From positions 5,251-69,250 of the forward strand of contig WTZQ01000003.1 of NCBI GenBank assembly GCA_009889635.1: a stretch of DNA of 64,000 nt, in the 5' to 3' direction. Source of the stretch: Candidatus Hikarchaeum yamanae (GTDB taxonomy: Archaea > Halobacteriota > Halobacteria > Halobacteriales > Hikarchaeaceae). This document shows positions 3 through 45,429 of this stretch, piece by piece. Positions within the stretch are counted from its first letter, which is position 1. Each line of letters begins with the position of its first letter. Both the position numbers and the translations under genes were made by a program. The notes beneath the pieces were generated by a model that saw only the letters and a list, made by a program, of their open reading frames with translations, made no database searches and was not told where the DNA came from.

Positions 3-1025
3 GTTGGGAGAAACGGAAAGTCGAAGTATTATTCAACCCCTCTTAAACCCGATGCAGTACTTCCTGACCGACTCGTTTTTAGAAAAACTATAGAAGACAG
101 AAACGGTCGACACACTCACCAGGGCAGTCTTGTCATCCTCGGATTGAAAGGATCTGGAGAAACATTAGTCGACGACGTTCGACATCCATGGGGGCCAGAA
201 GATCTTATTATCCTTCCTATAAAACCAGGTGGCATTGAGCACCAACATTTCAATATGAGGGGACCCGATGACCCTGCGGAATGGATCGCATTCATTCACG
301 TACCGTATCTAGAAGAACTCGGTGCGGAACTCACTCAAAATGAAGTTTACAAAGAGTGGCAAGAAAAACACTCTCACATGATGTCTGCAGATGACTTCGA
401 AGAGTATGATGACCACTACGATTTATTTCTAGACTTCGACTATGCAGACTGGGCTGACTACACACCCCCTGAAACAACCAACAGCTTGTACGATGATCTA
501 GTCGTTTTACGAAACAATTACCGAAAAATGGTCGCCCAGGCACAAGGGGCTGGAAATTGGGCTGTAATCCGGGGCGAAGATCTAGAATACGAAATCAATC
601 CCCAAGGAAAAATGAAATGGTATCTCCACCCTTCCTTTGAAGACCGATCTATGCGATCTCTTCTATTCTATATTCAAGAAATTCCACCCGGAAGCCGAAG
701 TGGAAAACAACATCGACAAGGGGGATTAGTCCATTACATAATGGGGGGGAAAGGACATACTATTATAGATGGAGCTAGATACCCCGATGGACCAAAACGC
801 CTCGAATGGGAAGCCGAGGATTATATGGCAATACCTCTATCCCCCGAAGGATGTCAGTTCCAACATTTCAACGACGACCCAGAGAATCCGGCAAAAATGG
901 TCGTTACAGAACCCTCTCATGGCTATGAACTCGGATGGTTAGATCTAGGATGTGGATTTGAACAGTTAGAAAATTGTCCAGAGTACGACGCACTAGATGA
1001 CTCTGAAAAATCAACAGCAATCTAA
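3..1025 (+). CDS. bicupin-domain protein (dioxygenase/isomerase-like), 5'-partial at window edge
   Basis: Frame is open from nt 3 with no stop, so the TTG at 144 in the ORF track is probably internal. Two cupin modules: GRHTHQGSLVILGLKGSG...PGGIEHQHFN and GKQHRQGGLVHYIMGGKGHTIIDG...PEGCQFQHFN. Confidence 0.6.
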   Translation, partial: VGRNGKSKYYSTPLKPDAVLPDRLVFRKTIEDRNGRHTHQGSLVILGLKGSGETLVDDVRHPWGPEDLIILPIKPGGIEHQHFNMRGPDDPAEWIAFIHVPYLEELGAELTQNEVYKEWQEKHSHMMSADDFEEYDDHYDLFLDFDYADWADYTPPETTNSLYDDLVVLRNNYRKMVAQAQGAGNWAVIRGEDLEYEINPQGKMKWYLHPSFEDRSMRSLLFYIQEIPPGSRSGKQHRQGGLVHYIMGGKGHTIIDGARYPDGPKRLEWEAEDYMAIPLSPEGCQFQHFNDDPENPAKMVVTEPSHGYELGWLDLGCGFEQLENCPEYDALDDSEKSTAI

Positions 1026-1077
1026 CTAATTTTTCAAAAGTAAACACTTTATCCCCTCCTCCACCTGATATAGTATA

Positions 1078-3084
1078 ATGTTAGATTACGCAGCAATACA
1101 GATTTCAATGCGGGAATGGATTCGAACAGAACCCGCGACCGAGAAGGAGATCGAATATGCAGCAAAAATCCAACCTGGGATGTATGAAGTCTATTCCAAT
1201 AAGTTAGACGTGGCTCTCGATGAGGCTAGAACTGTGTTTGTCCGAACTGGAGTTTCTGCGTTTCTTCGATCCGGGGATCTAGTGGTTGGATTACATAATG
1301 CAAAAGGAGATCTAGTCTCTGCTAGTTGTGGTACTTATATCCACGCTGCCATAGCACAATTGCCGATAAAATATATAATCGATCTATACATTGATGGAAA
1401 TTCCAATGTCAAAGTTCGCCCAGGAGATATTTTTTATACCAATGAAGCACTTGTTGGGGGTCTGCACAACCCCGATCAATTCGCAATCATGCCTATTTTC
1501 TTCGAAGACGAATTGATAGCTTGGAGCTCTGCCGCAGTCCACCAACAAGAAACAGGCGCGATCGAACCCGGCGGGATGCCTCAAAAAGCAACTTCTCGAC
1601 ATGATGAAGGCATGCGTCTTACTCCTATTAAAATCGCTGAGAATTATGAAATTAGAGATGATCTGATGGATATGATGGTCAACTTTATTTCTCGTGCTCC
1701 GCAAATGCAAGAAATAGATGTCAGAGCGAGATGCACTGCTACGGATAAACTACGCCACAGGGTCCAAGAATTAGCCCAAGAAATTGGACCCGAACATGTC
1801 CATGGACTCTTCCGAAAAATAATCGATGCCGCAGAATCTGGAGCAAGAGCTAGAATTTCTTCCTGGACTGACGGGGTCTACAAATCTGTCGCATTCGTCG
1901 ATACCACCGGCAACGATGAAACTTTATTAAAAGTTGCATTAGCTGTACACAAAAAGGGGGATTCTATCCATTTAGATTTCACTGGCACTTCACCAGAATG
2001 TGATGGGTCTTACAATACCTATGGACATGGCGTGGCTGCATTCCTTGCGACATACATATATCCTTATGTTTTCCATGATCTCCCCGTCTCTACTGGGACG
2101 TTGGCACCTTTCACTTTTGAAGTCCCCGATGGGTCTCTTCTCAACGCAGGTCCTGAGAAATCTGTCTGCAATTGCGTCTATTTAGGAAGATCTGTCATTT
2201 CTCTGTGCTTCGACGCTTTCACACGCCTACTTTATTCCACAGACCCCACCCGCGCCGTGGCAGCCCCTAGCGCCCATTCTGGAGGGGGATCTTTCAAAGG
2301 AATCAATAATATTGGATGGCCAATTTCAGAGAGCTTTTCATTTACACTAAACACCGATGGCCAGGGGGCACGCCACGACAAAGACGGTATGAATGCTCAT
2401 GGGTTCTTTTACTCACCATGGGGGAAAACAAACAACCTAGAAGATTTCGAAGAACATGGTATTTTTCTCGGATTGACACGAAGGCATTTCAATGATGCCC
2501 ATGGGTTTGGTAAATACAGGGGCGGTGTTGGAACTCAAAATGTTAATGTAGTCATTTCTGGTCCTGTTGAAGTAACTTCTCGTGGGAAAGGATCTAGAAT
2601 TCCTCATGACAATGGGGTTTTTGGTGGCTATGCTTCCACTTCATTACCAGGAATCTCTATCATTGGAAGCGACGCACTAGATCTTTTAGAAAATGGAACT
2701 GACTTTCCCGTTTCCGTTCGAGACTTGGTCGTTGACAAATCCCTTTCTGGCGATTACCGATTCGAGCGAATCAATCGAAGTAATCGAACCCTTGACAAGG
2801 GCGACATCTGGATAACCCTATCTTCTGGTGGTGGTGGCTTTGGAGATCCAATCGAACGTGACCCTGAAGATGTTCTTTCTGATTTTAATAAACATTTCAT
2901 CTCTGAATGGACTGCAACAAACGTTTACCATGTTTGTATTCGCGATGGCGTTTTAGATCTCAATGAAACTTCCAAACTTAGGGAAGAAGCATTAAAATCC
3001 CGTTTATCCCGTGGAACTTCATACGACACCTTTTCTAATGCCTGGTCTAAACAAAGTCCCCCCATACCCGTTTCTACATTTTAA
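1078..3084 (+). CDS. hydantoinase B / oxoprolinase-family protein (acetone-carboxylase alpha-like)
   Basis: 668 aa. C-terminal signature SSGGGGFGDPIERDPEDVLSD...YHV is typical of the Hydantoinase_B family. Confidence 0.8.
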   Translation: MLDYAAIQISMREWIRTEPATEKEIEYAAKIQPGMYEVYSNKLDVALDEARTVFVRTGVSAFLRSGDLVVGLHNAKGDLVSASCGTYIHAAIAQLPIKYIIDLYIDGNSNVKVRPGDIFYTNEALVGGLHNPDQFAIMPIFFEDELIAWSSAAVHQQETGAIEPGGMPQKATSRHDEGMRLTPIKIAENYEIRDDLMDMMVNFISRAPQMQEIDVRARCTATDKLRHRVQELAQEIGPEHVHGLFRKIIDAAESGARARISSWTDGVYKSVAFVDTTGNDETLLKVALAVHKKGDSIHLDFTGTSPECDGSYNTYGHGVAAFLATYIYPYVFHDLPVSTGTLAPFTFEVPDGSLLNAGPEKSVCNCVYLGRSVISLCFDAFTRLLYSTDPTRAVAAPSAHSGGGSFKGINNIGWPISESFSFTLNTDGQGARHDKDGMNAHGFFYSPWGKTNNLEDFEEHGIFLGLTRRHFNDAHGFGKYRGGVGTQNVNVVISGPVEVTSRGKGSRIPHDNGVFGGYASTSLPGISIIGSDALDLLENGTDFPVSVRDLVVDKSLSGDYRFERINRSNRTLDKGDIWITLSSGGGGFGDPIERDPEDVLSDFNKHFISEWTATNVYHVCIRDGVLDLNETSKLREEALKSRLSRGTSYDTFSNAWSKQSPPIPVSTF

Positions 3085-3143
3085 CCCATTTTTCCTTTTT
3101 CTAAATATACAACTTAATTACGGTCACAGGTCTCTAAACCCCC

Positions 3144-3938
3144 ATGGAACCTTCTGATTTCCTTGGAAAAACTATTATTGTCACTGGGGCAGCCAGCGGC
3201 GTTGGAAAGGCAATAGCCACTCGTTTTATGAACGGAGGCGGCGATGTAGTGGTCGCTGATATAGATCTAAACCATGCAAAAGAAACTGCAGAATCTCTCA
3301 ACGGGGCTGGAACTTCTTACGCAGTACAAGTAGACGTAAGAGACGAACAGTCTGTCAAATCTATGGTTGAATATACACTCAAAAACTGCGATTCACTTGA
3401 TGTATTAGTAAATAACGCAGGAATCTTTCAAAAATCAATTCCGTCCATTGAACAATCTCTAGAAGAATGGACACGTGTCATGGATGTCCATGTACAAGGG
3501 ACTTATCTATGTTCGAAAATAGCCGCAGTCCCTATGTTGGAACAAAAACAAGGTGCCATTGTAAACATCTCTTCCAATGCCGGATTTGCTGCATTCCCAT
3601 ACCGAACCGGATACAGTACTGCAAAAGCAGCGATAAACATGTTGACAAAAGTGTTTGCCATTGAATGGGCCTCCGACGGGGTCCGAGTCAATGCAATAGC
3701 CCCCAATTTTGTGGAAAAAGATCGAACCATCGATAGAGCCCTCGGGGAAGAAACTGTAAGGACAATAGGGGGTGGTGCAGATTTAGATTCGATTTTAGCA
3801 CGAACTCCAACTCACCGCCTAACATCGCTCGGATCGATCTCCGAATCCGTTGCATTTCTAGCTTCTGATAAAATCCCAGATGTTACTGGGGCCATTCTCC
3901 CAGTCGATGGAGGCTGGACTGCATACGGCTATTATTGA
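3144..3938 (+). CDS. short-chain dehydrogenase/reductase (SDR)
   Basis: TGAASGVGKA Rossmann motif, NNAG, catalytic YSTAKAA (Y-x3-K); 264 aa. Confidence 0.9.
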   Translation: MEPSDFLGKTIIVTGAASGVGKAIATRFMNGGGDVVVADIDLNHAKETAESLNGAGTSYAVQVDVRDEQSVKSMVEYTLKNCDSLDVLVNNAGIFQKSIPSIEQSLEEWTRVMDVHVQGTYLCSKIAAVPMLEQKQGAIVNISSNAGFAAFPYRTGYSTAKAAINMLTKVFAIEWASDGVRVNAIAPNFVEKDRTIDRALGEETVRTIGGGADLDSILARTPTHRLTSLGSISESVAFLASDKIPDVTGAILPVDGGWTAYGYY

Positions 3939-3983
3939 ATTCATCAGCCTTTTATCCTCCATACTCTATTATTCATTACAAAT

Positions 3984-4340
3984 ATGGTTTCTGTCGAAAT
4001 TACTCCCTATTTAGATATAAACTTGGATTCTGAGATGTGGGTTTGTAGCTCTTGTAATGGAGATTTGATAGATTGCAATTCAAATTACAAAACTGGATGT
4101 ACAATCGCAGAGAGGGACCCCTCTGAAATACATCATTCTGAGATTGACACCGAATATAAATTTTCTCCAGACCCTAAATGGTGTAAAATTATTGAATTTT
4201 ATTGTCCCCATTGCGGAATCATGATCGAAAATGAATATTTGCCCCTTGGTCATCCTATAACTCATGACATAGACATAGATATTGACCAACTTCGCACAAA
4301 AATATCTGAAGGTAGCATCCACCTGCGCACAAAACCATGA
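3984..4340 (+). CDS. small Cys-rich protein resembling acetone carboxylase gamma subunit
   Basis: 118 aa with CSSC...NYK...CPHCG...LPLGHP. ATGA overlap with the downstream HyuA-like gene. Confidence 0.55.
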   Translation: MVSVEITPYLDINLDSEMWVCSSCNGDLIDCNSNYKTGCTIAERDPSEIHHSEIDTEYKFSPDPKWCKIIEFYCPHCGIMIENEYLPLGHPITHDIDIDIDQLRTKISEGSIHLRTKP

Positions 4341-6490
4341 CAAAAAAGCTTAACACAACCATTGATGTCGATATAGGTGGAACTTTCACTGACTGTTTCG
4401 TTCGCTCAAATGGAACTATAGTCACCGGAAAAGCAGAGACCACTAGTCACGATTTGTCCATTGGATTTCTCAATTCTATCATCTCCGCATCTAGAGATCT
4501 AAATGTTGACCCCAATGACCTAATTGCCAGTGCAACCGCAATTCGATACTCTACAACTTTCGCGTTAAACAAATTAATTTCTCGAAGTGGTTCAAAACTT
4601 GGAGTTCTTGTCACCAATGGACTTGAAGACATAGTCCCTGTTGGGCGCGGATCACAATGGACCGATGGGATGACGGTACATGAACAACGAAATGTTTCAC
4701 GATCCGATAAACCAGAACCCATAGTTCCTCAAGATATGATAGTCGGCGTTCGCGAACGAATCAATTTCAAAGGTGAAATCATGCGGCCACTCGACGAAGC
4801 CGATCTTCGCGATAAAGTACGATACCTGGTTGAACAAGGAGCCAGAGGGTTCGCCGTGTGCCTCGCATGGTCTCACAGAAATCCTACTCATGAACAAAAA
4901 GTCAGAGAAATAATATCCGATGAATACCCCGATGCATATCTCGGAAGTGCACCTGCATTTTTATCTTCTGAAATAAGCAGAAAAAAAGGTGAATATGAAC
5001 GCACAATTACAACTATGCTAAGTGCATATCTTCATCAATCTATGATCGATGAATTGTATGGCATTGGAGATGAACTTAGACAGCGCGGATATGTTAAACC
5101 ACTTCAAATGATTCACAACACCGGTGGGACTGCAGAAATCTTCCGAACGAGTGCAATTGATACATTCAAAGGCGGTCCTGCTTCTGCTCTGGTCGGTGGT
5201 TCTTATCTTGGTGGTATCTATGGTTATGAAAATGTGATTGCAGCAGACATGGGGGGAACTAGTTTTGATCTATCTTTGATCGCTGGAGGGGCTTCTCGAA
5301 CTTACAATCTTGAACCCGTCGTAGATCGCTGGAGGGTTCATAGCACCATGCTCAAAAGTCAGTCCATAGGTGCTGGTGGGGGGTCTATCGCACGAGTAAG
5401 GGTGGATCTAGACAACAAAATAGAAGTTGGACCAGAGAGTGCTGGATCAAATCCAGGCCCTGCCTGTTATAACCAAGGTGGACGGAATCCAACTGTAACT
5501 GATGCAGATGTTATCTTAGGCTATATAGATCCCTCTGGATTCCATGGGGGGGAAAAACCACTGAGTGTACGACACGCAGAGCGTGCAGTACAGCGACAAG
5601 TTGCAGATCCACTCGGAATAGATGTGGTCGAAGCAGCGAGTTTGATCCGCTCCATAACTGATGCTGAAATGGGAAGTACCATCTACAAGGAGACTGCACT
5701 CCGGGGGTATGATCCTCAAAATTTTGTTCTATTTGCCATTGGGGGCGCTGGACCAACACACGCAGAAGGATTCGCAAAACACGCCGGAGTGAACACAATC
5801 ATCGTATTCCCCTATTCCTCTGTATTTTCTGCTTTTGGTTCTAGTGTCATGGATACAAAACATATCTACGAACAGTCTTTACATATCCCTCTACTCCAAC
5901 CAGGGACTTTGGATCCTTACCAAAATTTCGACGAATTCAACCAAACAGTACTCGATCTCCAAGAACTAGCGATCCACGATTTTAATGGCGAGGGGTATGG
6001 GGAAGATCAACTTTCATTTGAATTATATCTTGACATGAAATACGGGGGGCAGTTGGATGTGACTCGCGTTACTTCTCCTCTAACTGAACTCACTTCCGAT
6101 CAGGATATCTCAACCATTTCATCCGCATTTGAGAAAGAGTACAATGAGGTGTATAGTCCGATATCTACTACTCCCCAAAACGGAGTGGAAATAGACAATT
6201 TTGTACTCCAAGCAACTGCCCCTCGTGACAAACCACTTCTAGCGGAATATCCATTGTCTGGATCCGACCCACAATCTGCAGAAACAGGATCAAGACCTGT
6301 CTATTGGCTTCCCGACGGTTTTCAATCTTCCATCATCTATGACTGGAGTAAATTACTCTCTGGAAATGTTGTCAATGGGCCTGCAATCATCGAAGCCCCT
6401 TTTACAACCATAGCTGTCCCACCAAACTCAACGTATACGGTCGATAACAAATTAACTGGAATCTTATCACTCTCGTTTGAATCTTCTTAA
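4337..6490 (+). CDS. hydantoinase A / oxoprolinase-family protein (acetone-carboxylase beta-like)
   Basis: 717 aa. N-terminal IDVDIGGTFTDCF and internal ADMGGTSFD are actin-like ATPase motifs typical of Hydantoinase_A. Confidence 0.85.
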   Translation: MTKKLNTTIDVDIGGTFTDCFVRSNGTIVTGKAETTSHDLSIGFLNSIISASRDLNVDPNDLIASATAIRYSTTFALNKLISRSGSKLGVLVTNGLEDIVPVGRGSQWTDGMTVHEQRNVSRSDKPEPIVPQDMIVGVRERINFKGEIMRPLDEADLRDKVRYLVEQGARGFAVCLAWSHRNPTHEQKVREIISDEYPDAYLGSAPAFLSSEISRKKGEYERTITTMLSAYLHQSMIDELYGIGDELRQRGYVKPLQMIHNTGGTAEIFRTSAIDTFKGGPASALVGGSYLGGIYGYENVIAADMGGTSFDLSLIAGGASRTYNLEPVVDRWRVHSTMLKSQSIGAGGGSIARVRVDLDNKIEVGPESAGSNPGPACYNQGGRNPTVTDADVILGYIDPSGFHGGEKPLSVRHAERAVQRQVADPLGIDVVEAASLIRSITDAEMGSTIYKETALRGYDPQNFVLFAIGGAGPTHAEGFAKHAGVNTIIVFPYSSVFSAFGSSVMDTKHIYEQSLHIPLLQPGTLDPYQNFDEFNQTVLDLQELAIHDFNGEGYGEDQLSFELYLDMKYGGQLDVTRVTSPLTELTSDQDISTISSAFEKEYNEVYSPISTTPQNGVEIDNFVLQATAPRDKPLLAEYPLSGSDPQSAETGSRPVYWLPDGFQSSIIYDWSKLLSGNVVNGPAIIEAPFTTIAVPPNSTYTVDNKLTGILSLSFESS

Positions 6491-6491
6491 C

Positions 6492-6929
6492 TTATCTTAT
6501 GTCTACGCCGTCTGGAATGACTGAAGAAGTATCTATAATTTTCTCCGGTAGAATCTGAATTAGATATCGTTCCTTTTTCTTTTGAAATGGGTATTCTTGT
6601 ACTCCCCATCTTCGTTGGGCCTCTTGGTCTAGAAATTCTTTCCCCCCTCGTTTTGACATGCTTACTACCTTTCCCCTAACTAAGTACACTTCATATGGGT
6701 TTTCTGGAGCAGAAATTGTAAGTGCTACTCTCGGGTCCCGTTTCATATTTGCATGCCTCACGTGCTCTATTCCTCCGGCAGTTATTATATATTCACCATC
6801 AATGCCCACCCATACTGGAACTACATGAGGGGATCCATCTTCCATTATGGTGGCGAGACTTGAAAAAACATTTTTTTCGAACATCTCTATGAATTTTTTT
6901 GACATTCTCATACTTCTTCCAGGGTCCAC
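6492..6929 (-). CDS. pyridoxamine 5'-phosphate oxidase-family (PPOX/flavin- or F420-binding split barrel) protein
   Basis: GSPHVVPVWVGIDGEYIIT...KRDPRVALTI pattern; 145 aa. Confidence 0.6.
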   Translation of the reverse strand: MDPGRSMRMSKKFIEMFEKNVFSSLATIMEDGSPHVVPVWVGIDGEYIITAGGIEHVRHANMKRDPRVALTISAPENPYEVYLVRGKVVSMSKRGGKEFLDQEAQRRWGVQEYPFQKKKERYLIQILPEKIIDTSSVIPDGVDIR

Positions 6930-7025
6930 CCACTCTTAATCCTATCTCAACCCCCTCTATTATTTGACCAGTTAGTCTGTTGAGATATCAAATAATTATT
7001 ATACTTAAGTGATCTCTCCGTACTT

Positions 7026-8012
7026 ATGGTTGATACCGAATTTGGCTATAAGGATGAAAGCTATTATAAAACTCCTTGGAAAAGTTACCAAGGCCATAAT
7101 GCAGATCCAATTGACACTTTGGATACTCCTCTAATAATAGAAGTCGCCCCTTGTGGATCATTTATAAAAAGAGATTTGAATCCCCACCAACCTTATGTGG
7201 CAGAAGAAGTTGCAGATCAGGTAATCGGGGCGATGAATGCTGGGGCTTCTATGGCACATCTCCACGTCCGCAGGGAGGATGGTATTCCCGATGCATCCCC
7301 TGAGACTATAGTTAAAACAATTAAACTAATCCAAAAAGAACACAATCCTATTACTACTATTAATGTAAGGAGCAACATCGAAGGTGCCACTTTTGGGGTC
7401 CCTCTTTTAGAACAAACTATCGGTAGGATTCTCGATGAGTACGGTCCTGGATATGTTGATATGGTTACTGGCTCCCCTTTGGGAGATGCCTTAGACCCTA
7501 GAGCCCCTTTCGTGATGAACCCTGATATTTTACAAGGATGGGTGAACTTCCTCCAAGACAATGGCCTCAAACCGGAAATGATGGCTTATTCTTACAAAGC
7601 ATACCCTCGACTCAAAAGATGGCTTGTTGACACAGGAGTCTGGAAAAAACCCTATTATGTAAACACAACTTGTGGTGATCACGCATACTTCACCTCCGGC
7701 CCAACCGCCCCTCACCCCTGGGGGGCACTATATTTAGCTTCTATGTGGGAAACAAACCCACTCCCTAGAGAAGACACCGTTCAGGGGAGTGTTGTAGGTG
7801 GAAGAAATTGGCTACCTCTGACAGTCGAGGCAATAATGATGGGGTATCAAGTCGTACGTATAGGTATGGAAGACACCGTATACATGTATCCTCATAAAGA
7901 TGAAAAAATAAAAACCTGCCAGCAAGTAGTCGAAACCGTAGTTAATATCTGTGAAAACCTTGGCCGTGAAATTGCTACACCAAAACAAGCAAGAAAAATT
8001 TTGGGAATTTAA
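7026..8012 (+). CDS. beta-keto acid cleavage enzyme (BKACE/DUF849, 3-keto-5-aminohexanoate cleavage-like)
   Basis: PLIIEVAPCGS and AGASMAHLHVRREDG motifs; 328 aa. Confidence 0.75.
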   Translation: MVDTEFGYKDESYYKTPWKSYQGHNADPIDTLDTPLIIEVAPCGSFIKRDLNPHQPYVAEEVADQVIGAMNAGASMAHLHVRREDGIPDASPETIVKTIKLIQKEHNPITTINVRSNIEGATFGVPLLEQTIGRILDEYGPGYVDMVTGSPLGDALDPRAPFVMNPDILQGWVNFLQDNGLKPEMMAYSYKAYPRLKRWLVDTGVWKKPYYVNTTCGDHAYFTSGPTAPHPWGALYLASMWETNPLPREDTVQGSVVGGRNWLPLTVEAIMMGYQVVRIGMEDTVYMYPHKDEKIKTCQQVVETVVNICENLGREIATPKQARKILGI

Positions 8013-8020: not shown

Positions 8021-8494
8021 TCAATATAATTGGAAGTATCGGATCACTCCTATACTCCATGCTATAATCCAGATTATTAGAAATCCCATTACTCCTACTC
8101 TTAGTCTCCTTCTCCATAGATCAATCCCATCTCCCAATTCTTCAATTGGAATCGAGTCATCTGGAACTTGATATAGGTTCAAAGATCTCTTCGCATTAAA
8201 TATTTTGATTATTCCTGTCAATGCAAAGATCAAAAATGCATATGCCTGGAGGCCCACAAAAGTGTGTAACGCAATGTATCCATCTAACCGAGAAAAGGAT
8301 CTAGGTATCATCCACACAATAATGGGGAATGTAGTAAGTGCAAGACCTGTAAAAATAAATTTTAAATGGTGGACTAAAACCCCCCATGTAACTACTTTTT
8401 CTCTAAGAATTATCCATGCACCATATATGTAAAATGGAAAACTAGCCGTAACAGTAATTAAAACTATTGTGGCAATTATTGCATCTCCATTCAT
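8021..8494 (-). CDS. integral membrane protein, unknown function
   Basis: 157 aa, about 4-5 hydrophobic helices; no family recognised. Confidence 0.45.
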   Translation of the reverse strand: MNGDAIIATIVLITVTASFPFYIYGAWIILREKVVTWGVLVHHLKFIFTGLALTTFPIIVWMIPRSFSRLDGYIALHTFVGLQAYAFLIFALTGIIKIFNAKRSLNLYQVPDDSIPIEELGDGIDLWRRRLRVGVMGFLIIWIIAWSIGVIRYFQLY

Positions 8495-8564
8495 CCCGTT
8501 CGTTCAAACCAAACACCCTAAGATCACTTAATTTTTGCTCTTCGGTTAACAATATGAAAACACC

Positions 8565-9218
8565 TTGTCCAGCCCCAACGAAGAATCACTCACTCCACCT
8601 GACTCCGATCTCCCCTCTGATCTAGAATTTTCTATAGTTGGCAAAGAATTGTTAAATCGTGTAGAACTAGACATTAGAGATCGAATCTCTAGGCGGAATA
8701 TCATAGCCGCAATAGAAACAATCCATATTGACGACGAAGAGAATCTTTTAATCTATGACGATGCCGGATATGCTCTTATAGCACTCGACGGTTCAGTGAG
8801 TGGGATGGGTTCAATCCGAACCGAGATAGAAAATATAGTTGTACTTTGCTCTATGGACACTTACGATGTGCCCGAACTACCTGCAGGGGATTTCTCTCTC
8901 AATATTGATGCAATCTCCAAATCCTCCTCTGGAATTGGAAATAAATTGCTTCAAATATTGGCATCATCCTTCTTGATCATTGGAATTCTACTTCTTTTTT
9001 CACCCCTTTTTATAAACTTTCCCCGTCCCGGTTCCGGAATTCTCACCACTGTCTCTGGATTTGGTTTTATTTTTACCGGGCTATTCCTACTCTTAGTCGT
9101 AGTCCACTCGCGTCTATCTGATCGTTTTCGGTCCACGGAGTACGAAGATCGACTAAAAAAAATTGGAATTGGATCCGATTTCCGACCCGATTTTCTCCCC
9201 CCTTCTGATAAAAAATAA
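8565..9218 (+). CDS. hypothetical protein with acidic soluble N-domain and two C-terminal TM helices
   Basis: Long ORF with a TTG start in the track (start uncertain); TM segments LLQILASSFLIIGILLLF and GFGFIFTGLFLLLVVV. Confidence 0.4.
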   Translation: MSSPNEESLTPPDSDLPSDLEFSIVGKELLNRVELDIRDRISRRNIIAAIETIHIDDEENLLIYDDAGYALIALDGSVSGMGSIRTEIENIVVLCSMDTYDVPELPAGDFSLNIDAISKSSSGIGNKLLQILASSFLIIGILLLFSPLFINFPRPGSGILTTVSGFGFIFTGLFLLLVVVHSRLSDRFRSTEYEDRLKKIGIGSDFRPDFLPPSDKK

Positions 9219-9302
9219 GATCAATTTTCAGATATTTTATATCTCTGTTTATTTCACACATATCGGTGCCTTTATTGACCTCCTCTACTCATATTCCACT
9301 AT

Positions 9303-9965
9303 ATGCATCGGCGGCATTTCCTTCAATCTGCTACCGGGTCTCTTGCACTTCTTTTTACCTCTCCAATTGTTGCAGCGGCAGAAGTGCCTCCGTCAGCAGA
9401 AGAATCTGCCCAAACTCATGTGGTCGAAATGACCGACGCTATGATTTATGACCCCGATGTGATCACCATTGCACCCGGCGACACAGTCGAATGGATTACC
9501 GTTGGTCAAATGGGACATTCGATCACTGCCTATGAAAATGAATTGCCCGATGGGGCACCCTATTGGGCATCTGGTGGATTTGATTCCGAAGACGATGCCA
9601 GAAGCGGCTACCCCGGTGGAAACATTGCAAAAGACGAAACTTACTCCTATACCTTCGATATGGAAGGGGAATATGGCTATTTCTGTGTCCCTCACGAAAC
9701 CATCCAAATGATCGGTAAAGTAATAGTTAGTGAAGGAGGTGCAGCCACTGCATCAAGTAGCAGTGGCGGCCATGCAGCAGGAATGGGGGCAGGGGGAGAC
9801 GATCCACATTCCGAAGGAGAAGACCCCGAACACATGGGTGTGGCATTCCAAGCACACTGGGTCGGAATAGCAACACTTCTTGGAATATTCGCTTCTCTAG
9901 TATTCACATTTTTCTTCTTAAAGTACAACGAAACGCCACATTCAGGATACCCAAAACAAAAGTGA
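9303..9965 (+). CDS. halocyanin/plastocyanin-like type-1 copper protein, Tat signal, C-terminal membrane anchor
   Basis: MHRRHFLQS twin-Arg signal. Cu ligands GHSITA...YFCVPHETIQM (C-x2-H-x4-M). Gly/Ser/Ala linker, then TM WVGIATLLGIFASLVFTFFFL. Confidence 0.85.
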   Translation: MHRRHFLQSATGSLALLFTSPIVAAAEVPPSAEESAQTHVVEMTDAMIYDPDVITIAPGDTVEWITVGQMGHSITAYENELPDGAPYWASGGFDSEDDARSGYPGGNIAKDETYSYTFDMEGEYGYFCVPHETIQMIGKVIVSEGGAATASSSSGGHAAGMGAGGDDPHSEGEDPEHMGVAFQAHWVGIATLLGIFASLVFTFFFLKYNETPHSGYPKQK

Positions 9966-9969
9966 TAGT

Positions 9970-10359
9970 ATGACATCTCCAAGTAGTAAATATGGTTCTA
10001 TACACCGCTACGAACCTCCGCGAGAAAGCACGGCAGCAACAATAGCCATAGTTTTACTCACTGTGATTGAAGTCCTATTCGCGACCCTATTCACCTATGG
10101 TTTAATCTTCGGAGGCTGGGGATTCTCTGGAGTGGGAAATATGTATTTAGGAGGTCTACTAGCCCTACTATTTATTAATTTATCCTTCATCCTGGTTCTG
10201 TACCGAAGGGATTTTTTACCGGATGTCGTAATTGTAAAACAGCGCAGGAGAAAATGGGAAGACCTCTACACCAAACCAGAAGATGTACATGGCCATTCCA
10301 TAATTACCACTATGACCGATAAGATGAAAACCAATCTATACCTCTATAAGAAAAAATAA
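9970..10359 (+). CDS. small membrane protein (2 TM) within bc-complex operon
   Basis: 129 aa, two hydrophobic helices; 4 nt after the cupredoxin gene and 2 nt before the Rieske gene. Confidence 0.5.
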   Translation: MTSPSSKYGSIHRYEPPRESTAATIAIVLLTVIEVLFATLFTYGLIFGGWGFSGVGNMYLGGLLALLFINLSFILVLYRRDFLPDVVIVKQRRRKWEDLYTKPEDVHGHSIITTMTDKMKTNLYLYKKK

Positions 10360-10361
10360 CC

Positions 10362-11222
10362 ATGACTTCAGATGATAAATACCCCAAAGTTTCTGGAAGA
10401 AGGCGGTTTGTCAAAGGTGTCGTAGGCGGGGCCGCACTAGCAGGTATTGGAACTGCGACTAGCGGAACTGTAAACACCATGACCAATCCTTCTGGAGCTG
10501 GTGGTGGCGTAACCGAATACTTCGGAATCGAAAAATTATTTGGTCCTGCTCCTCGCGGAATGCCTCAAATACCCGTCGTCATCGACGACGATGGATTCCT
10601 TATGGGATTGTGGCCAAAAGTATCTGAAATAATTGAAGGAGGGAGGAAGGTAACTGTGGCCCAACAAGAAATAGCCGGTGTTACTTATTCCTCTGATTGG
10701 TTCCAATACTGTGGTGTCCAAACCTACCCTGGAGTAAAACCACTTGCAGATCAAGACAACTATTTCAGATATGCAAATAATCCCCCTTATAAGTGGCAAA
10801 AAGAAGAAGTTTCCCCCGGGGCAAAAGTACATATTGACGATTTTGAGGACTACGTGACTTGGGGTAATTCAATTGGAAAGGCGGGTGTGGGAAAGCCTGC
10901 ATTTGCTACCTGGAGGTCTCAAGATGTACCCCCTCAAGTACAGATGCCCGTGCAGCTCATTCGTAGTACAATAGTTGACAACCTAATCTCTAATGCACAA
11001 GGTGAAACAAAACAATGGCTTCAGGAAAGTTGCCGCCAAGGATTTATAGCCATATTAGACAAATGCACTCATTTTTGCTGCGTTCCCGGATTCAAATCAT
11101 TCACAGATAGTGAAAAATTTGATGGCGCAGATTTAATTTATTGCCAATGCCACCAATCCGTCTATGATCCTTTCAGCATAATCAAAGATCGATTTGTAGC
11201 TTTACCAAGGACTGAGGAATGA
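10362..11222 (+). CDS. Rieske [2Fe-2S] subunit of a cytochrome bc/b6f-type complex
   Basis: Tat signal SGRRRFVKG; cluster boxes CTHFCC and CQCHQS. Confidence 0.85.
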   Translation: MTSDDKYPKVSGRRRFVKGVVGGAALAGIGTATSGTVNTMTNPSGAGGGVTEYFGIEKLFGPAPRGMPQIPVVIDDDGFLMGLWPKVSEIIEGGRKVTVAQQEIAGVTYSSDWFQYCGVQTYPGVKPLADQDNYFRYANNPPYKWQKEEVSPGAKVHIDDFEDYVTWGNSIGKAGVGKPAFATWRSQDVPPQVQMPVQLIRSTIVDNLISNAQGETKQWLQESCRQGFIAILDKCTHFCCVPGFKSFTDSEKFDGADLIYCQCHQSVYDPFSIIKDRFVALPRTEE

Positions 11223-11223
11223 C

Positions 11224-12018
11224 ATGACCCCTGATTTAAAAGAACACTACGACTATTCCAAATGGCTATCTGAAAAGGAACTGACTCCCCTTGAAAAAAC
11301 CTATTTAACAATTCTCATCTGGGCAGATCAACGTCTCCGAATAGTAGATTACCTGGAGTCTATGGAAAATTTATACTACAAGATAAATATGCAAATGCCC
11401 CGTAGCCACACCGAACAATACAATCTTGATAATAAATTTTGGTATTGGTATCCACTATATGCACTTGGGACCTTCTCTGTAATTGCATATCTAGTCGCTG
11501 CCATCTCTGGGGCTTTGCTAGGATTCTATTATTCCCCCGCAACGGCTGGAGACCCCTCCGTTGCATACAACCAAATAACATATATCATGACCGATCTCAA
11601 TTTTGGATTCATGTTACGTTCCATCCATCGATGGTCTGCACAAGTTATGGTAGCTGCAGTTTTCCTCCATATGCTGCGTGTCTATTTCGTAGGGGCATAC
11701 AAAGAACCAAGAGAATTGAATTGGATAATAGGAATCATCTTGATCTCACTCACCCTGATGTTCGGCTACACTGGTTACCTCCTCCCCTGGGATCAACTTT
11801 CGTTCTGGGCCGGTCAAATTGGGGTTGAAATGGCACTCTCAATTCCTATATTGGGTGAATGGGTTGCACAACTAATGTTTGGCGGATTCTCCCTAGGACA
11901 AGCCACTTTACAACGTATGTATATCCTCCACGTATTCATACTTCCATTTGCGGTAACTACTGTGATTGCAATTCACATTGGAATTGTTTGGATGCAAGGA
12001 ATTGCAGAACCACATTGA
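11224..12018 (+). CDS. cytochrome b (b6-type, N-terminal four-helix part)
   Basis: RSIHRWSAQVMVAAVFLHMLRVYF and LHVFILPFAVTTVIAIH bis-His pairs; PRELNWIIG. Confidence 0.9.
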   Translation: MTPDLKEHYDYSKWLSEKELTPLEKTYLTILIWADQRLRIVDYLESMENLYYKINMQMPRSHTEQYNLDNKFWYWYPLYALGTFSVIAYLVAAISGALLGFYYSPATAGDPSVAYNQITYIMTDLNFGFMLRSIHRWSAQVMVAAVFLHMLRVYFVGAYKEPRELNWIIGIILISLTLMFGYTGYLLPWDQLSFWAGQIGVEMALSIPILGEWVAQLMFGGFSLGQATLQRMYILHVFILPFAVTTVIAIHIGIVWMQGIAEPH

Positions 12019-12025
12019 TGATATT

Positions 12026-12847
12026 ATGAAAAACAAAATATACAAAAAACAAAAAAACAACGTGGAATTCCCTATCCTCACCGATGGCTCTGGATTAATG
12101 CAAACCCCAGTCCCCCCTGATGATCAAACCCCTAGTTGGTCTGAGCGTAAATCTAGATCCACTGGGCTAGCCCAACTCACATATGAATATTTCGAACGGG
12201 CTAGACTTGAGGATCAAGACATTCGTTCCCGAGCTGACTATTTAGAACGGGAAGTATTGGGATTCCCAATGTGGCCACACGAAGTCGTCCGCGGATTTGC
12301 AATTACTAGCTTTTTCATAGGCATTATATTACTTCTTTCGGCCGTTGCACCTCCTCACATTGCCGCTCCTGCAAACCCAAGCCAAACCCCTGCGGTCATC
12401 CTCCCTGATTGGTACCTATATTGGTCATTTGGTCTTCTTAAGCTCGAACCGCTCAACCCTGCACTTTCCATATTAGGAGGTGACAAAATAATGCTAGATC
12501 GAACATTCGGAGTTCTTGCAAATCTAGTCGTCGTGGGGTTCTTGGCAGCCCTGCCATTTGTAAATAAAGGCAAAGCTAGACGGCCTGTAGAAGAACCATT
12601 TTGGGCAGCTTTCGGTGTCGCAGGTGTAGTTTTTGCATTCACCGTAAGTGTTCTTTCTGTCAAAAATCTGGTCCCTCTAAATTCCCATCTCCTCTTTGAT
12701 TTAACTTTCATTCTACCTGTTCTATTTGGGATTGTATTCTATTCCTTATTAAAAACCATGCGGGAAGGATATATGTATGAATTAAACAGACGTTACTATC
12801 GTCTTAGACCTCCTAAACCATATAGCCCCCCGAAACCTCCTAAATAA
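12026..12847 (+). CDS. cytochrome b C-terminal part / subunit IV-like protein
   Basis: PDWYLYWSFGLLK (PEWY-type Qo motif). The ATG at 12026 avoids the overlap created by the track start at 11966. Confidence 0.75.
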   Translation: MKNKIYKKQKNNVEFPILTDGSGLMQTPVPPDDQTPSWSERKSRSTGLAQLTYEYFERARLEDQDIRSRADYLEREVLGFPMWPHEVVRGFAITSFFIGIILLLSAVAPPHIAAPANPSQTPAVILPDWYLYWSFGLLKLEPLNPALSILGGDKIMLDRTFGVLANLVVVGFLAALPFVNKGKARRPVEEPFWAAFGVAGVVFAFTVSVLSVKNLVPLNSHLLFDLTFILPVLFGIVFYSLLKTMREGYMYELNRRYYRLRPPKPYSPPKPPK

Positions 12848-20787: not shown

Positions 20788-22188
20788 ATGGCAAAGGACC
20801 TTCGAACTTATCTAGAAATCCTCGAGCGAGAATCGCCTTCTCAGTTGGCCTATATTGACAAAGAAGTCGACCCCAAATATGAAATAGCATCCATCGTCCG
20901 GAAATTACAAGACGAACCAGACGGTGCTTACCCTGCTATATTTTGCACAAATGTTAAAGGGTTCCCCGACTGGAGTGTAGTCACCAATTTGTGTGGGACC
21001 GATTATCGCATGGCACTTGGGATCGATGCGACACCCGAAGAAGCAATACGAGAGTACACAGAACGCGTTACAAACCCCATACCACCCATCGAAGTATCCA
21101 CCGGACCTGTAAAAGATGTAATCAAAATAGGGGATGAAGCTGATATCAATGAAATACCTCTTTTGAGTCACACAGTAGAAGAACCCGCTCCCTTCATGGA
21201 TGGGGAGGTTTTCGTTCTCTATGACCAAGAAAATTCTAGGTACAATACGGGAATCTATCGTATGATGAAAAAGGCTCCTCGGAAAACTGGAATATTTTTC
21301 GCCCAGGGAACGCATGCATATTCCATTCTTAGCCAGGCAGAAGCCAGAGACGAGCCTCTAGAATTTGCTGCCGTAGTTGGGCACCATCCTGCCTTTATTT
21401 ATGGCTGCCAAGTCCAAACGGTCGAAGACGAATACAATGCTATTGGAGGTGTAATGGGCGAACCACTCGAACTAGTAGATTGCGAAACTGTTGATCTCAA
21501 AGTCCCCGCAAATGCAGAGCTAGTAGTCGAAGGGGTAATCCAACCTCATGTCCGAGAAAAAGAAGGTCCATTTTGTGAATTCACATACTTACTCGGAAAA
21601 GCACGTGAATCTCCCGTCTGCGAAATAACTGCGATCACTCACCGAAAAGATCCTATTTACTTTGATGTTTACAATCCCGGGGTAGAACACGTGAACATAG
21701 GAAAACTCCCTATGGAAGTGGATATCTATCGAAAAGCAAAAGATTCAGTATCCCAGGTTATGGATGTCTTCATGCCTGCAGAAGCAAGTAGGACTGTAGC
21801 AATAGTCAAAGTAAGAAATGAATACCCCGGAGTTGGAAAACAAGCAGCAATAGCAGCAGCATCTGCAAAATACTTCCCCAAGATCATAACCGTTGTAGAC
21901 GAAGAACAAAATATCCGAGACCCCCACGATGTTTGGTGGGCAATGGCAATGAAATGCCGCCCCGACCGGGACTTTAATTTCGTCAAAGATGCATATGTGG
22001 AAAATTTAATCCCTGTCGCAACTACTGGTCGTGGCTGGCCCGATACGCACGGTGGTGTAGATACCAAATTGTTCATTGACGCAACCAAACCGCTCGATGT
22101 TGATTACCCACCACATTGTGAACCACCTGCAGAGATTTGGCAAAATATGGATCTCGACGAATACATCCGTGGAAGAAAATCAAGCTAG
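20788..22188 (+). CDS. UbiD-family (prenylated-FMN dependent) decarboxylase
   Basis: 466 aa; N-terminal DLRTYLEILERE and overall UbiD-like layout. Confidence 0.8.
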   Translation: MAKDLRTYLEILERESPSQLAYIDKEVDPKYEIASIVRKLQDEPDGAYPAIFCTNVKGFPDWSVVTNLCGTDYRMALGIDATPEEAIREYTERVTNPIPPIEVSTGPVKDVIKIGDEADINEIPLLSHTVEEPAPFMDGEVFVLYDQENSRYNTGIYRMMKKAPRKTGIFFAQGTHAYSILSQAEARDEPLEFAAVVGHHPAFIYGCQVQTVEDEYNAIGGVMGEPLELVDCETVDLKVPANAELVVEGVIQPHVREKEGPFCEFTYLLGKARESPVCEITAITHRKDPIYFDVYNPGVEHVNIGKLPMEVDIYRKAKDSVSQVMDVFMPAEASRTVAIVKVRNEYPGVGKQAAIAAASAKYFPKIITVVDEEQNIRDPHDVWWAMAMKCRPDRDFNFVKDAYVENLIPVATTGRGWPDTHGGVDTKLFIDATKPLDVDYPPHCEPPAEIWQNMDLDEYIRGRKSS

Positions 22189-23789: not shown

Positions 23790-24151
23790 AAAGTAACTAT
23801 GATCTTTCCGTCTTCAACACGCACAGGATATGAAGGAAGTTTGACAGATCTCCTAGATAAGCAAGTCCCCGTTTTTATATCATATTCCCAACCGTGCCAC
23901 GGACAGTTCAATATTTTTCCTTCTTTTATCCAATTCAGCCTAGTTTCTAGAGTGTCTCTATTAAACTCACCTTCAAACGTCCCTGTAAGGGTCCCTTCAC
24001 ACCAGGGTCCACCTTGATGAGCACACCAATTAGCAAACGCATAATACTCTCCATCTATATAAAATATTCCAATTTCTCTTCCCTTCAATTCAACAAGAAT
24101 TCTCTCTCCCTCTTTTATCTCTGAAACTTCTGCAACTACGTGATCTGCCAT
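23786..24151 (-). CDS. Rieske [2Fe-2S] domain ferredoxin
   Basis: CAHQGGP and CPWHGWEY cluster boxes; 121 aa. Confidence 0.88.
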   Translation of the reverse strand: MADHVVAEVSEIKEGERILVELKGREIGIFYIDGEYYAFANWCAHQGGPWCEGTLTGTFEGEFNRDTLETRLNWIKEGKILNCPWHGWEYDIKTGTCLSRRSVKLPSYPVRVEDGKIIVTL

Positions 24152-25221
24152 TAAATCCCGTACACCTCTTTGGCATTTCCTGACAATACTTTTTTTCTAT
24201 CCTTCGCAGGTATATTCACCCTAAGGAATTTCTCCAAACCCTCTGGATGGTCAAAATCGAAGTGTGGATAATCCGAAGAAAACATCATCCTATCAAATCC
24301 GATCACTTCCATTATCTTCCTCATGTCTTCTTGATTATTTGGCTCTCCAACGGGTTGGGTGGATATGTAGAATTGATCTTTGATATACTCTTCTGGAGTT
24401 TTTGTTAACATCGGCGCATCAAACCTTCGGATTGAGTGCACTTTGTTTAATCGATACATCATGTACGGGAGCCAGGTAACTCCCCCTTCTAAGAAAATAA
24501 ATTTTAGGTCTGGGAATTTCTCGGGAACTCCGTGTTCAAAGAGGCTAGTCATTGTTAGAAAGTGGGCATATGGGTGTGTTAACACATGCACTGCGAAGAA
24601 TGATTCTACTCCTGCATTTTGTCTTGGAAAATCAACGATAAATCCACTGTCATATGCATGATAAGATACAGGGAGTCCCTTGTCTTCTGCCGCTCGATAT
24701 ACTACGTCATATCGTGGGTCGCCTAGTGGCGGGTTTGGACCTGTATTGTCTATAAAAACCCCGATATATTGCTTTTCATCTGCCATTCTGTAAATTTCTT
24801 CTGCTGCCGCTTCTGGATCTTGCATTGCGACTGTTATCAAACCATAAAAGTGAGGATAGTCGTCCAAATATTTCTGTAGAACTAAATCATTATACCCTTT
24901 CATGAGCGCAACAGCAAGCCGAGACATAGATGCCTTTCCCAACTTCCCAAATGAATTTATTATTGGATGGTCGATGTGGAACTCTTCACATAACTTTTCG
25001 TGAATATCCTCTGGCCCCGTAATTTGTCTCTTTTCTATTTTCCCCGCCATACTTCTGTCCCACCCCGAATCTGGAAGTGGGTTCCCAATATGGCCCTTTG
25101 TCATTATACTTTTAAATGGCTCGTCGACCCATTTCGCAATCTCTTCAGGTTTTACCTGGAGATGGACATCTGTATCAATAATCGTCTCCTTTTTCAGTGA
25201 TAAATTTCTCTCATTTGCCAT
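24151..25221 (-). CDS. amidohydrolase-2 family protein (ACMSD/LigW-like decarboxylase or hydratase)
   Basis: IIDTDVHL near the N-terminus and FSSDYPHFD near the C-terminus; 356 aa. Confidence 0.8.
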   Translation of the reverse strand: MANERNLSLKKETIIDTDVHLQVKPEEIAKWVDEPFKSIMTKGHIGNPLPDSGWDRSMAGKIEKRQITGPEDIHEKLCEEFHIDHPIINSFGKLGKASMSRLAVALMKGYNDLVLQKYLDDYPHFYGLITVAMQDPEAAAEEIYRMADEKQYIGVFIDNTGPNPPLGDPRYDVVYRAAEDKGLPVSYHAYDSGFIVDFPRQNAGVESFFAVHVLTHPYAHFLTMTSLFEHGVPEKFPDLKFIFLEGGVTWLPYMMYRLNKVHSIRRFDAPMLTKTPEEYIKDQFYISTQPVGEPNNQEDMRKIMEVIGFDRMMFSSDYPHFDFDHPEGLEKFLRVNIPAKDRKKVLSGNAKEVYGI

Positions 25222-39842: not shown

Positions 39843-39844
39843 CT

Positions 39845-40783: not shown

Positions 40784-40795
40784 TGACTTTAAATT

Positions 40796-41935: not shown

Positions 41936-42032
41936 TCTTACCCCGAAAAAGGCAGAAGAGAACATCAACTTGGCTATTTCAATTCCCAATTTAAAACATA
42001 TATTTTATATTCGTTTAAAAGGAATCAAAAAC

Positions 42033-42512: not shown

Positions 42513-42572
42513 TCCCCACCACCATTCGACTTTAGTCCTACAAACGTATGAAATATTTTTGAGATGGTTTAA

Positions 42573-42580
42573 TTTATCAC
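42573..42580 (+). promoter_or_regulatory. TATA-like box (TTTATCAC) for tfx; leaderless geometry
   Basis: 26 nt upstream of the ATG at 42599. Confidence 0.45.
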
Positions 42581-42598
42581 CGGGTCCTATCCATCCGT

Positions 42599-43039: not shown

Positions 43040-43110
43040 ATAGATTTAGTTGATCAATTTGGTAATATTAAACCCTTAAGCTTAAATTCTCTTGGCGAGA
43101 ATATACCCAT

Positions 43111-45305: not shown

Positions 45306-45429
45306 TTCTGTCTGAATATCATACAATTTTAATCCGTTGTCCTTAAATAGCACACACGAATACCATATCCCACGTAATAGATGTAGGGGTCCCTCCCCGA
45401 GTCCCACAGTGGGCGACGAGAACCAACAT

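Follow-up and report, generated by a model that had tools for sequence, protein, structure and literature searches.

Acetophenone carboxylase (Apc, ApcABCDE) of Aromatoleum aromaticum EbN1 (PDB 5L9W) carboxylates its ketone with the conversion of two ATP to two ADP and needs five subunits to do so (Weidenweber et al. 2017, PMC5214803). Acetone carboxylase (Acx, AcxABC) of Xanthobacter autotrophicus (PDB 5M45/5SVB) belongs to the same superfamily and has no alpha' or epsilon subunit (Mus et al. 2017, PMC5543143). HyuAB, OplAB and CapAB (PDB 6YRA, 7HK5), whose A and B subunits are homologous and carry Hydantoinase_A and Hydantoinase_B domains, are two-subunit hydrolases that lack gamma, alpha' and epsilon and have a shorter B subunit. 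Here we analyse 64,000 nucleotides (the window) of contig WTZQ01000003.1 from Candidatus Hikarchaeum yamanae, a member of Marine Group IV, the sister lineage of the Haloarchaea with streamlined genomes of ~1.2 Mb and ~41% GC (PMC7599335). We put at roughly 60% the probability that window positions 1078-6490 encode three subunits (beta, gamma and alpha) of an Apc-branch ketone carboxylase that uses ATP and no biotin, that its alpha' and epsilon-like subunits are encoded elsewhere in the genome, and that a short-chain dehydrogenase/reductase (SDR) and a BKACE-family protein encoded at the same place act in the same route.

Results

The candidate subunit genes lie in a block of co-directional genes that runs from a bicupin gene through beta, SDR and gamma to alpha (Table 1), with intergenic gaps of 52, 59 and 45 nt, in that order, ahead of the overlapping gamma and alpha genes. 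A preliminary description of this DNA had listed the open reading frames (ORFs) with their coordinates, spacers of 45-59 nt, the ATGA overlap at 4337-4340 and the motifs CSSC, NYK, CPHCG and LPLGHP of the small Cys-rich ORF, and all of these are found in the sequence as listed. The family calls for all seven ORFs, from the bicupin to the BKACE protein, pass the Pfam thresholds and are far beyond chance. The alpha gene meets a PPOX-like gene tail to tail with a single nucleotide between the two stop codons (6488-7025 region), which leaves no space for terminators, and the PPOX-like and BKACE genes diverge from a 96-nt intergenic region through which they may be co-regulated. For the BKACE neighbour, the family and coordinates of the preliminary description stand; the gene lies outside the co-directional block, beyond the minus-strand PPOX-like gene, and its product is very divergent.

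Table 1. Coordinates of the features discussed; positions are those of the window unless a contig is named.
Feature	Positions	Strand	Remarks
Bicupin	3-1025	+	First gene of the co-directional block; 5' part beyond the window edge, full length 397 aa in contig L001; Cupin_2 9e-8
Apc beta-type subunit (ApcD/HyuB-like), 668 aa	1078-3084	+	Hydantoinase_B 5e-92
Classical SDR, 264 aa	3144-3938	+	Between beta and gamma genes; adh_short 8e-52
Apc gamma-type Zn-ribbon subunit (ApcB-like), Cys-rich, 118 aa	3984-4340	+	Acetone_carb_G 1.2e-31 (110 bits, cut-off 21)
ATGA start/stop overlap	4337-4340	+	Couples gamma and alpha genes; read in the sequence
Apc alpha-type ATP-binding subunit (ApcC/HyuA-like), 717 aa	4337-6490	+	Hydantoinase_A 4e-72; its N and C domains 1e-37 and 3e-37
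PPOX/PNPOx-like (F420/FMN-type) small flavoprotein	6492-6929	-	PNPOx_N 2e-11
Divergent BKACE/DUF849-family protein, 328 aa	7026-8012	+	BKACE 3e-44
Second locus, same species, outside the window	L099 10001-14163		alpha' (ApcA-like), 298-aa ApcE-like URO-D-fold protein, MFS transporter
Bicupin paralogue pair	L001 2008-3186 and 5414-6607		67% identical
Halocyanin	9303-9965		Within complex-III-like cluster
286-aa ORF	10362-11222		Rieske-type CTH...CQCH motif; no Pfam match on record
Split cytochrome b	11224-12018 and 11966-12847		
UbiD-family decarboxylase	20788-22188	+	
Amidohydro_2 protein	24151-25221	-	

All three subunits resemble Apc more than any other enzyme of known structure. Against PDB entries, alpha scores 731 bits with Apc (5L9W), 359 with Acx, 331 with caprolactamase and 271 with N-methylhydantoinase; the corresponding values for beta are 501 (5L9W_A), 164, 101 and 124 bits, while gamma reaches 131 bits (2.4e-37) with 5L9W_C and 35 bits with Acx gamma. 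Caprolactamase and N-methylhydantoinase, with the lowest scores, have no gamma subunit. In a neighbour-joining (not maximum-likelihood) tree of 123 alpha-type sequences, with references transcribed from PDB alignments, the window alpha falls within the gamma-linked Apc-alpha branch, and all gamma-less loci form a separate branch. Bootstrapping of a 46-sequence subset (200 replicates) unites Hikarchaeia and Haloarchaea in one alpha clade (100%), which joins authentic ApcC and relatives of it from acidobacteria and myxobacteria at 98%; the Acx clade, the split that sets off Acx plus Hyd/Cap and the alpha' clade are each recovered at 100%. Beta was placed by the ratio of its scores only. Subunit lengths are likewise Apc-like, with beta 668, gamma 118, alpha 717 and alpha' (see below) 648 aa compared to 684, 129, 732 and 658 aa in Apc; in Acx, for which the reference lengths are 776 and 168 aa, the beta-type subunit is more than 100 aa longer and gamma carries an N-terminal extension of ~50 aa that is missing here. 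By these measures the carboxylase genes are assigned to the Apc branch and not to the Acx or hydantoinase/oxoprolinase branches. This bears out the preliminary description in two respects: it had associated the small ORF with gamma subunits, and the nesting of the A and B proteins inside oxoprolinase or N-methylhydantoinase clades, which it had named as a ground for refutation, is not seen.

Residues with roles described in the structure papers on Apc (PMC5214803) and Acx (PMC5543143) point in the same direction. C21, C24, C74 and C77 of gamma align without gaps with the Zn ligands C22, C25, C75 and C78 of Apc gamma. D67, H130, D133 and H155 of beta match D65, H123, D126 and H148 of Apc beta and the catalytic Mn site of Acx (E89, H150, D153 and H175), so that the gamma Zn ribbon and four Mn-site ligand equivalents are shared with AcxABC along with the superfamily and the predicted ATP-dependent carboxylation of a ketone. 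Beta also keeps the glycine-rich segments known from the fold of Apc beta (GQGA, GKYRGGVG, FGGY and GGGGFGDP), and alpha contains the ATP motifs DIGGTFTD (12), DMGGT (304) and GSNPGP (370) as well as RERINFKG, a version of the fingerprint (R/KERiDsxG in the Apc paper, alpha only) that separates alpha from alpha'.

Could the genes encode no carboxylase at all, but an ATP-dependent hydrolase (a lactamase, hydantoinase or oxoprolinase-like enzyme) made of alpha and beta, with or without gamma, or a mere carbonyl kinase? ATP-dependent amidohydrolases dominate the superfamily, NCBI annotates the carboxylase-type proteins only as 'hydantoinase/oxoprolinase family protein', and what is known of function in the Apc branch comes from a single characterised enzyme. 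We nevertheless regard this explanation as quite improbable: no enzymes other than carboxylases are known to have gamma, alpha' and epsilon, which the Hyd enzymes lack (PMC5214803), the gamma-less loci all lie in their own branch of the tree, and the length of beta is that of Apc, compared to ~570-580 aa in Hyd/Cap.

The preliminary description had proposed an enzyme of A, B and gamma subunits only. This three-subunit, Acx-like architecture was rejected in favor of an Apc-type one. In a survey of 80 bacterial loci, a second HyuA-like gene (alpha') was in the cluster at 35 of the 35 that contain gamma, mostly upstream of gamma, and a second, shorter HyuA-like gene is found in most haloarchaeal sister clusters; an alpha' was therefore searched for in our species as well. 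There is no second HyuA- or HyuB-like gene within the window or upstream on the source contig. A haloarchaeal alpha' query recovered ~50%-identical proteins of ~650 aa from marine samples, among them P0308 (WP_415487188.1, 648 aa) of Candidatus Hikarchaeum yamanae itself. P0308 scores higher with ApcA (384 bits, short of the cut-off of 1250) than with ApcC (331 bits), keeps the ATP motifs DVGGTFTD, DMGGTSLD and GANPGP intact, and falls in the alpha' clade with 100% bootstrap support as the sister of haloarchaeal alpha', the same pattern as in the alpha tree.

Directly after the P0308 gene, on the opposite strand, lies the gene of a 298-aa protein that we consider epsilon-like on the strength of transitive homology plus synteny, with less certainty than for alpha'. 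Its counterpart in a related Hikarchaeal lineage has ApcE as top NCBIfam match (32 bits, 6e-8), and it aligns at 1.4e-49 with a protein encoded inside a haloarchaeal gamma-alpha-X-beta-alpha' cluster. Iterated searching found homologues in ~15 bacterial Apc-branch loci, plus 3 marginal ones, where the genes directly follow beta (the apcE position), separate gamma from alpha, or adjoin alpha'; two of these proteins reach 81-90 bits on the ApcE model. The species is accordingly predicted to encode a complete five-subunit Apc-type set split over two loci. The second locus also encodes a transporter of the OFA (oxalate/formate-lactate) type (TIGR00890, 265 bits), and its neighborhood is one of housekeeping genes (CofH, archaeosine genes, Pus10 and SecDF), with an Amidohydro_2 and Rieske-ferredoxin pair 4 kb upstream. 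The idea that this locus is what is left of an ancestral cluster, with Amidohydro_2 as its marker, found no support, as identity between the Amidohydro_2 proteins of Hikarchaeia and Haloarchaea is only 20-22%.

The arrangement of the genes sets this system apart from Apc. In Aromatoleum they form a single cluster of the order apcA-B-C-D(-E), that is alpha'-gamma-alpha-beta(-epsilon), which is not the order seen here; instead, an archaeal host carries beta-SDR-gamma-alpha, with an embedded SDR, at one locus and alpha' and the epsilon-like protein at another. Gamma immediately upstream of alpha, a feature of all related loci, is the sole part of the apcB-apcC order that has been kept. The acxABC order of Acx differs from the one seen here as well. 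Haloarchaeal Apc-like clusters (L009, from a Haloferacaceae metagenome-assembled genome, L006 and L008) form the uncharacterised sister clade, with alpha ~60% and alpha' ~50% identical to the Hikarchaeal proteins. Their subunit genes stand together, in the order gamma-alpha-epsilon-beta-alpha' or similar, beside ABC transporters, and an epsilon-like gene is present in L006. L008 (9666-14354) holds just gamma-alpha-beta, and neither alpha' nor an epsilon-like gene lies within 10 kb, so that Hikarchaeia are not alone in having split or reduced arrangements. The layout alpha'-gamma-alpha-beta is common to a large, uncharacterised sub-branch of bacterial loci (L027-L046), whose alpha proteins are 36-40% identical to that of the window; Helicobacter baculiformis (L046, 7615-14300) has an Apc-type four-gene cluster of this order, unlike the acxABC arrangement of H. 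pylori.

The gamma protein recurs without change on Tara Oceans marine contigs, and a HyuA homologue (P0001), whose cluster holds RefSeq WP_415489071.1, is 96% identical to the window alpha. Looked up by exact sequence, P0001 and the CysRS, ribosomal protein L10 and BKACE encoded in the window all lead to RefSeq proteins of Candidatus Hikarchaeum yamanae. Homologous genes in one Hikarchaeia bin had been labelled automatically by Prokka as 'Acetophenone carboxylase gamma/beta subunit' and 'Glucose 1-dehydrogenase 2' (PMC7599335 supplementary table); that paper does not mention these carboxylase and dehydrogenase genes in its main text or its supplementary discussion.

For the substrate, the acetophenone pocket of Apc alpha offers a point of comparison. 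It has been tentatively assigned to L81, F281, N282, P285, I333, Q344 and T345 (PMC5214803), giving LFNPIQT in authentic Apc. The window alpha reads LFKPVKS at these positions and all Hikarchaeal sequences examined read LFKPV[K/R]S, so that each carries two basic changes (N282K and Q344K/R) among the seven proposed pocket residues. Haloarchaea have LFNPIE[A/T], with Asn and Glu at the Hikarchaeal Lys and Lys/Arg positions, and the Paenibacillus and NaphS2 relatives have MYNPI[E/D]T. Because the equivalog cut-offs of the Apc subunits are missed (see Discussion) and two proposed pocket residues are basic, acetophenone is probably not the substrate; the N-to-K and E/Q-to-K/R changes suggest a ketone more polar or anionic than acetophenone.

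It is accordingly very improbable that the enzyme is a true orthologue of the Aromatoleum acetophenone carboxylase, fed with acetophenone from 1-phenylethanol. Apc is the best match for all subunits, an SDR gene lies within the cluster, and the authors of the Hikarchaeia study speculate, in general terms, about aromatic substrates (PMC7599335). Yet the scores amount to 35-60% of the equivalog cut-offs, the pocket shows its two neutral-to-basic changes, the gene order differs, and the cluster has no gene for a benzoylacetate-CoA ligase, the place of this neighbour being taken by BKACE. Nor is the SDR Ped-like. The parallel that the preliminary description had drawn with 1-phenylethanol dehydrogenase had to be given up, since the SDR shows no special similarity to this enzyme, which is not among its top 60 PDB matches.

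The SDR has the motifs TGAASGVG (14), NNAG (90), NISS (141) and YSTAK (157). SDRs in which beta2 ends with an acidic residue usually use NAD; as Asp ends beta2 here (VVVAD, 35-39), the sequence suggests NAD(H) as the cofactor. Of the 241 NCBIfam models that match the protein, just one does so near its cut-off. The BKACE ORF covers the full Pfam profile PF05853 (1-274 of 274) with 152 bits compared to a cut-off of 24.8. Its AHLHV (H-x-H) and IGMED (Glu) segments align with IHLHA and VGLED of 8RIP and presumably supply the Zn ligands, as in Kce (3-keto-5-aminohexanoate cleavage enzyme). It is far from the characterised members, reaching 113 bits with Kce (cut-off 382) as the best of the NCBIfam equivalogs, 84 of 430 and 70 of 350 with others, and at most 66 bits with any solved structure in the PDB; it is thus not assigned to any of the known substrate classes, such as those of Kce, 3-oxoadipate or 3,5-dioxohexanoate. 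The start codon of the PPOX-like gene, which is kept in all Hikarchaeal copies, is uncertain, with 117-145 aa across gene calls.

A paralogue of the bicupin (392 aa, 67% identical) is encoded ~3.4 kb upstream, outside the window, and members of their uncharacterised family are labelled automatically as gentisate or quercetin dioxygenase-like in the source databases. In the family alignment H94, H96, H137 and H139 of the N-terminal cupin are invariant (H-x-H...H-x-H), as are Q344 and N347 of the C-terminal cupin, with H345 nearly so. The absence of a Glu after H-x-H makes the site look gentisate-dioxygenase-like rather than oxalate-decarboxylase-like. An AlphaFold2 model (pLDDT 90) confirms the bicupin fold and has 3BU7 as top Foldseek match (2.7e-16, TM ~0.5); the comparison does not separate gentisate/salicylate dioxygenases from oxalate decarboxylases and seed storage proteins, which score about equally (TM ~0.5). 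Scores with TIGR02272 are 25-31 bits (cut-off 442). The bicupins are probably metalloenzymes, distantly related in kind to gentisate/salicylate 1,2-dioxygenases. Bacterial homologues occur in mixed contexts, one with UbiD/UbiX and a Zn-dependent alcohol dehydrogenase (Zn-ADH), namely a UbiX, UbiD, binding-protein, bicupin and Zn-ADH operon (L102, 5173-10198), another with acyl-CoA dehydrogenases and Hydantoinase_B.

The presence of two bicupins that resemble gentisate dioxygenase hints at aromatic compounds as the substrate class. Both the UbiD and the Amidohydro_2 family include aromatic-acid (de)carboxylases, and the genes of these two families that lie further along the window, like the bicupins, would be compatible with aromatic compounds that carry substituents; small ketones and aliphatic keto acids are conceivable substrates too. 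In a more specific version of the small-ketone idea, the Apc-branch enzyme would carboxylate acetone or butanone, that is small aliphatic ketones, and would serve to scavenge volatile ketones from seawater. This would suit a host that lives in oxic open-ocean water, and a marine acetone carboxylation pathway is reported to show high expression in a gammaproteobacterium of the Arctic Ocean (10.64898/2026.08.16.745133). It would also suit the presence of 2-hydroxypropyl-CoM and butanediol dehydrogenases among the SDR matches and, as a matter of chemistry, butanone could be passed through BKACE to propionyl-CoA and acetoacetate. We still judge it distinctly unlikely: acetone would yield acetoacetate, on which BKACE with acetyl-CoA would be degenerate, the sequences lie in the Apc and not the Acx branch, and basic pocket changes and two dioxygenase-like bicupins are a poor fit for a small neutral ketone.

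The preliminary description had expected the linkage of SDR, gamma and BKACE to be conserved in relatives, and this is so among Hikarchaeal contigs. The block MFS, bicupin, CDC48 (-), bicupin, beta, SDR, gamma, alpha, PPOX (-), BKACE is kept there (alpha 80-96% identical) as far as the contigs reach, and is entire in L001, L010 and L014. L011 has the same arrangement with a different downstream flank. The expectation fails in the haloarchaeal sister clusters and in the 80 bacterial loci. SDR genes do occur within 10 kb at ~6 of 38 Apc-branch loci, sporadically; by a rough estimate this is not above chance expectation, and SDR enrichment near other Apc-branch clusters was dropped as a line of argument.

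Other features of the window

The BKACE gene is followed by a complex-III-like respiratory cluster (window 8021-12847, continuing to ~14000; L001 13603-19431) that includes the halocyanin, Rieske-type and cytochrome b genes of Table 1. Interleaved in it are genes for six small membrane proteins of DUF73xx families (DUF7321, 7319, 7318, 7315, 7314 and 7313), which may be lineage-specific subunits. Window GC is 0.38-0.46. GC skew is -0.1 to -0.3 at 16000-38000 and near zero or positive at 38000-50000, a shift that may only reflect a change of the dominant coding strand. The only RNA gene detected in the window is a tRNA-Ser (GCT) at 45429-45518; with its start, a mechanical ORF at 44097-45443 (-) overlaps the 5' end of the tRNA gene, which lies inside a second mechanical ORF at 45337-46026 (+).

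Discussion

Following the chemistry of Apc, we propose that alpha would phosphorylate the enol form of a methyl ketone, and that alpha' would turn bicarbonate into carboxyphosphate. Both intermediates could then combine to a beta-keto acid, possibly at the conserved metal site of beta, as in Acx. The SDR encoded within the operon, which probably depends on NAD, would most likely supply the ketone from a secondary alcohol, and BKACE would most likely convert the beta-keto acid and acetyl-CoA into an acyl-CoA and acetoacetate, thereby standing in for the CoA ligase and thiolase of Aromatoleum. A route from alcohol to ketone to beta-keto acid to acyl-CoA is plausible in outline. We favor a pathway shared by SDR, carboxylase and BKACE because the SDR gene is flanked by the genes for two subunits of a single enzyme, and because an enzyme that would form a beta-keto acid adjoins one that would consume it; this positional and chemical fit is the strongest argument for it. 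More tentatively, and with a probability well below even, the genes may make up a so far undescribed module, in which a five-subunit Apc-type carboxylase encoded at split loci adds bicarbonate to a polar or anionic methyl ketone and BKACE converts the product to acyl-CoA and acetoacetate. Such a module might act on an aryl methyl ketone with a hydroxy or carboxy substituent, or on levulinate (to 3-oxoadipate). We found no published mention of BKACE together with an acetone or acetophenone carboxylase. No characterised archaeal Apc-type enzyme was found in the literature either, in agreement with the preliminary description, and the only trace is an entry for a Dead Sea fosmid in a table of lateral transfers.

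Several points weigh against our reading of the locus. The assignment is a sequence-based prediction. NCBIfam also ranks Apc first for each subunit, but all scores stay far below the equivalog cut-offs (ApcC 776 of 1500, ApcD 562 of 1500, ApcB 153 of 250). Only one Apc-branch enzyme has ever been characterised, which leaves function within the branch poorly constrained (PMC5214803). Sphingobium AcvCDEF, considered as a second one acting on a phosphorylated substrate, was dropped, as the preprint shows AcvCDE to be biotin-dependent. The pocket residues are only tentatively assigned in the Apc structure paper. When the 298-aa protein of Candidatus Hikarchaeum yamanae is scored directly, ApcE (21.7 bits) comes behind MtaA (29 bits), both weak matches, and the epsilon-like and alpha' proteins would have to work jointly with the window-encoded subunits from a separate locus, which we infer. 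The nearest PDB relatives of the SDR are generic (3-hydroxybutyrate, 2-hydroxypropyl-CoM and butanediol dehydrogenases), and the failed match to 1-phenylethanol dehydrogenase belongs here as well. The BKACE fold also includes cis-epoxysuccinate hydrolase, so that the reaction type of the BKACE protein is not guaranteed. Its gene is a transcription unit apart from the carboxylase genes. The linkage of SDR, BKACE, bicupin and PPOX is absent from the three haloarchaeal loci, and the 80 bacterial loci contain no BKACE (one match of 35 bits), no PPOX and no such bicupin; linkage of SDR, BKACE and bicupin is thus specific to Hikarchaeia. At 80-96% identity, its conservation there may reflect general synteny rather than selection and is weak evidence of function.

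In another explanation, carboxylase and SDR/BKACE belong to different pathways, the SDR oxidising a beta-hydroxy acid and BKACE cleaving the resulting beta-keto acid with acetyl-CoA, and their adjacency is a matter of packing in a 1.2-Mb genome. SDR and BKACE are an established pairing (10.1101/205583), known from deoxyribonate or carnitine catabolism. The separate transcription of BKACE, divergent from PPOX, the 3-hydroxybutyrate dehydrogenases among the top SDR matches, the missing SDR or BKACE linkage at the other Apc-branch loci surveyed and the very high coding density of the lineage (PMC7599335) fit this explanation too. It is hard to square, however, with an SDR gene placed between beta and gamma with spacers of 59 and 45 nt; a maker of beta-keto acids beside a consumer of beta-keto acids would be a striking chemical coincidence, and the arrangement survives in L011 despite the different downstream flank. 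On balance we consider separate pathways rather unlikely and retain the shared route of SDR, carboxylase and BKACE.

The Apc branch, with its one characterised enzyme, is widespread in bacteria and extends to Haloarchaea and their marine sister group. Its split loci in Hikarchaeia also hold a warning for annotation, as cluster-based rules would misread them as a three-subunit, Acx-like enzyme. The retention of a five-subunit enzyme in a streamlined 1.2-Mb genome points to a substrate of ecological relevance in oligotrophic seawater, especially given that the characterised relative spends two ATP per carboxylation. This ties in with the growing interest in the marine cycling of ketones and volatile organic carbon and in heterotrophic CO2 assimilation. 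If true, the coupling to BKACE would let the product of a carboxylation enter CoA metabolism in a new and cheaper way, which would also be attractive for forming C-C bonds by biocatalysis. The system as a whole would then represent the first ketone carboxylase from an archaeon and the first pathway to pair a carboxylase with BKACE, and it would give an abundant ocean archaeon with a streamlined genome a route to incorporate CO2 heterotrophically.

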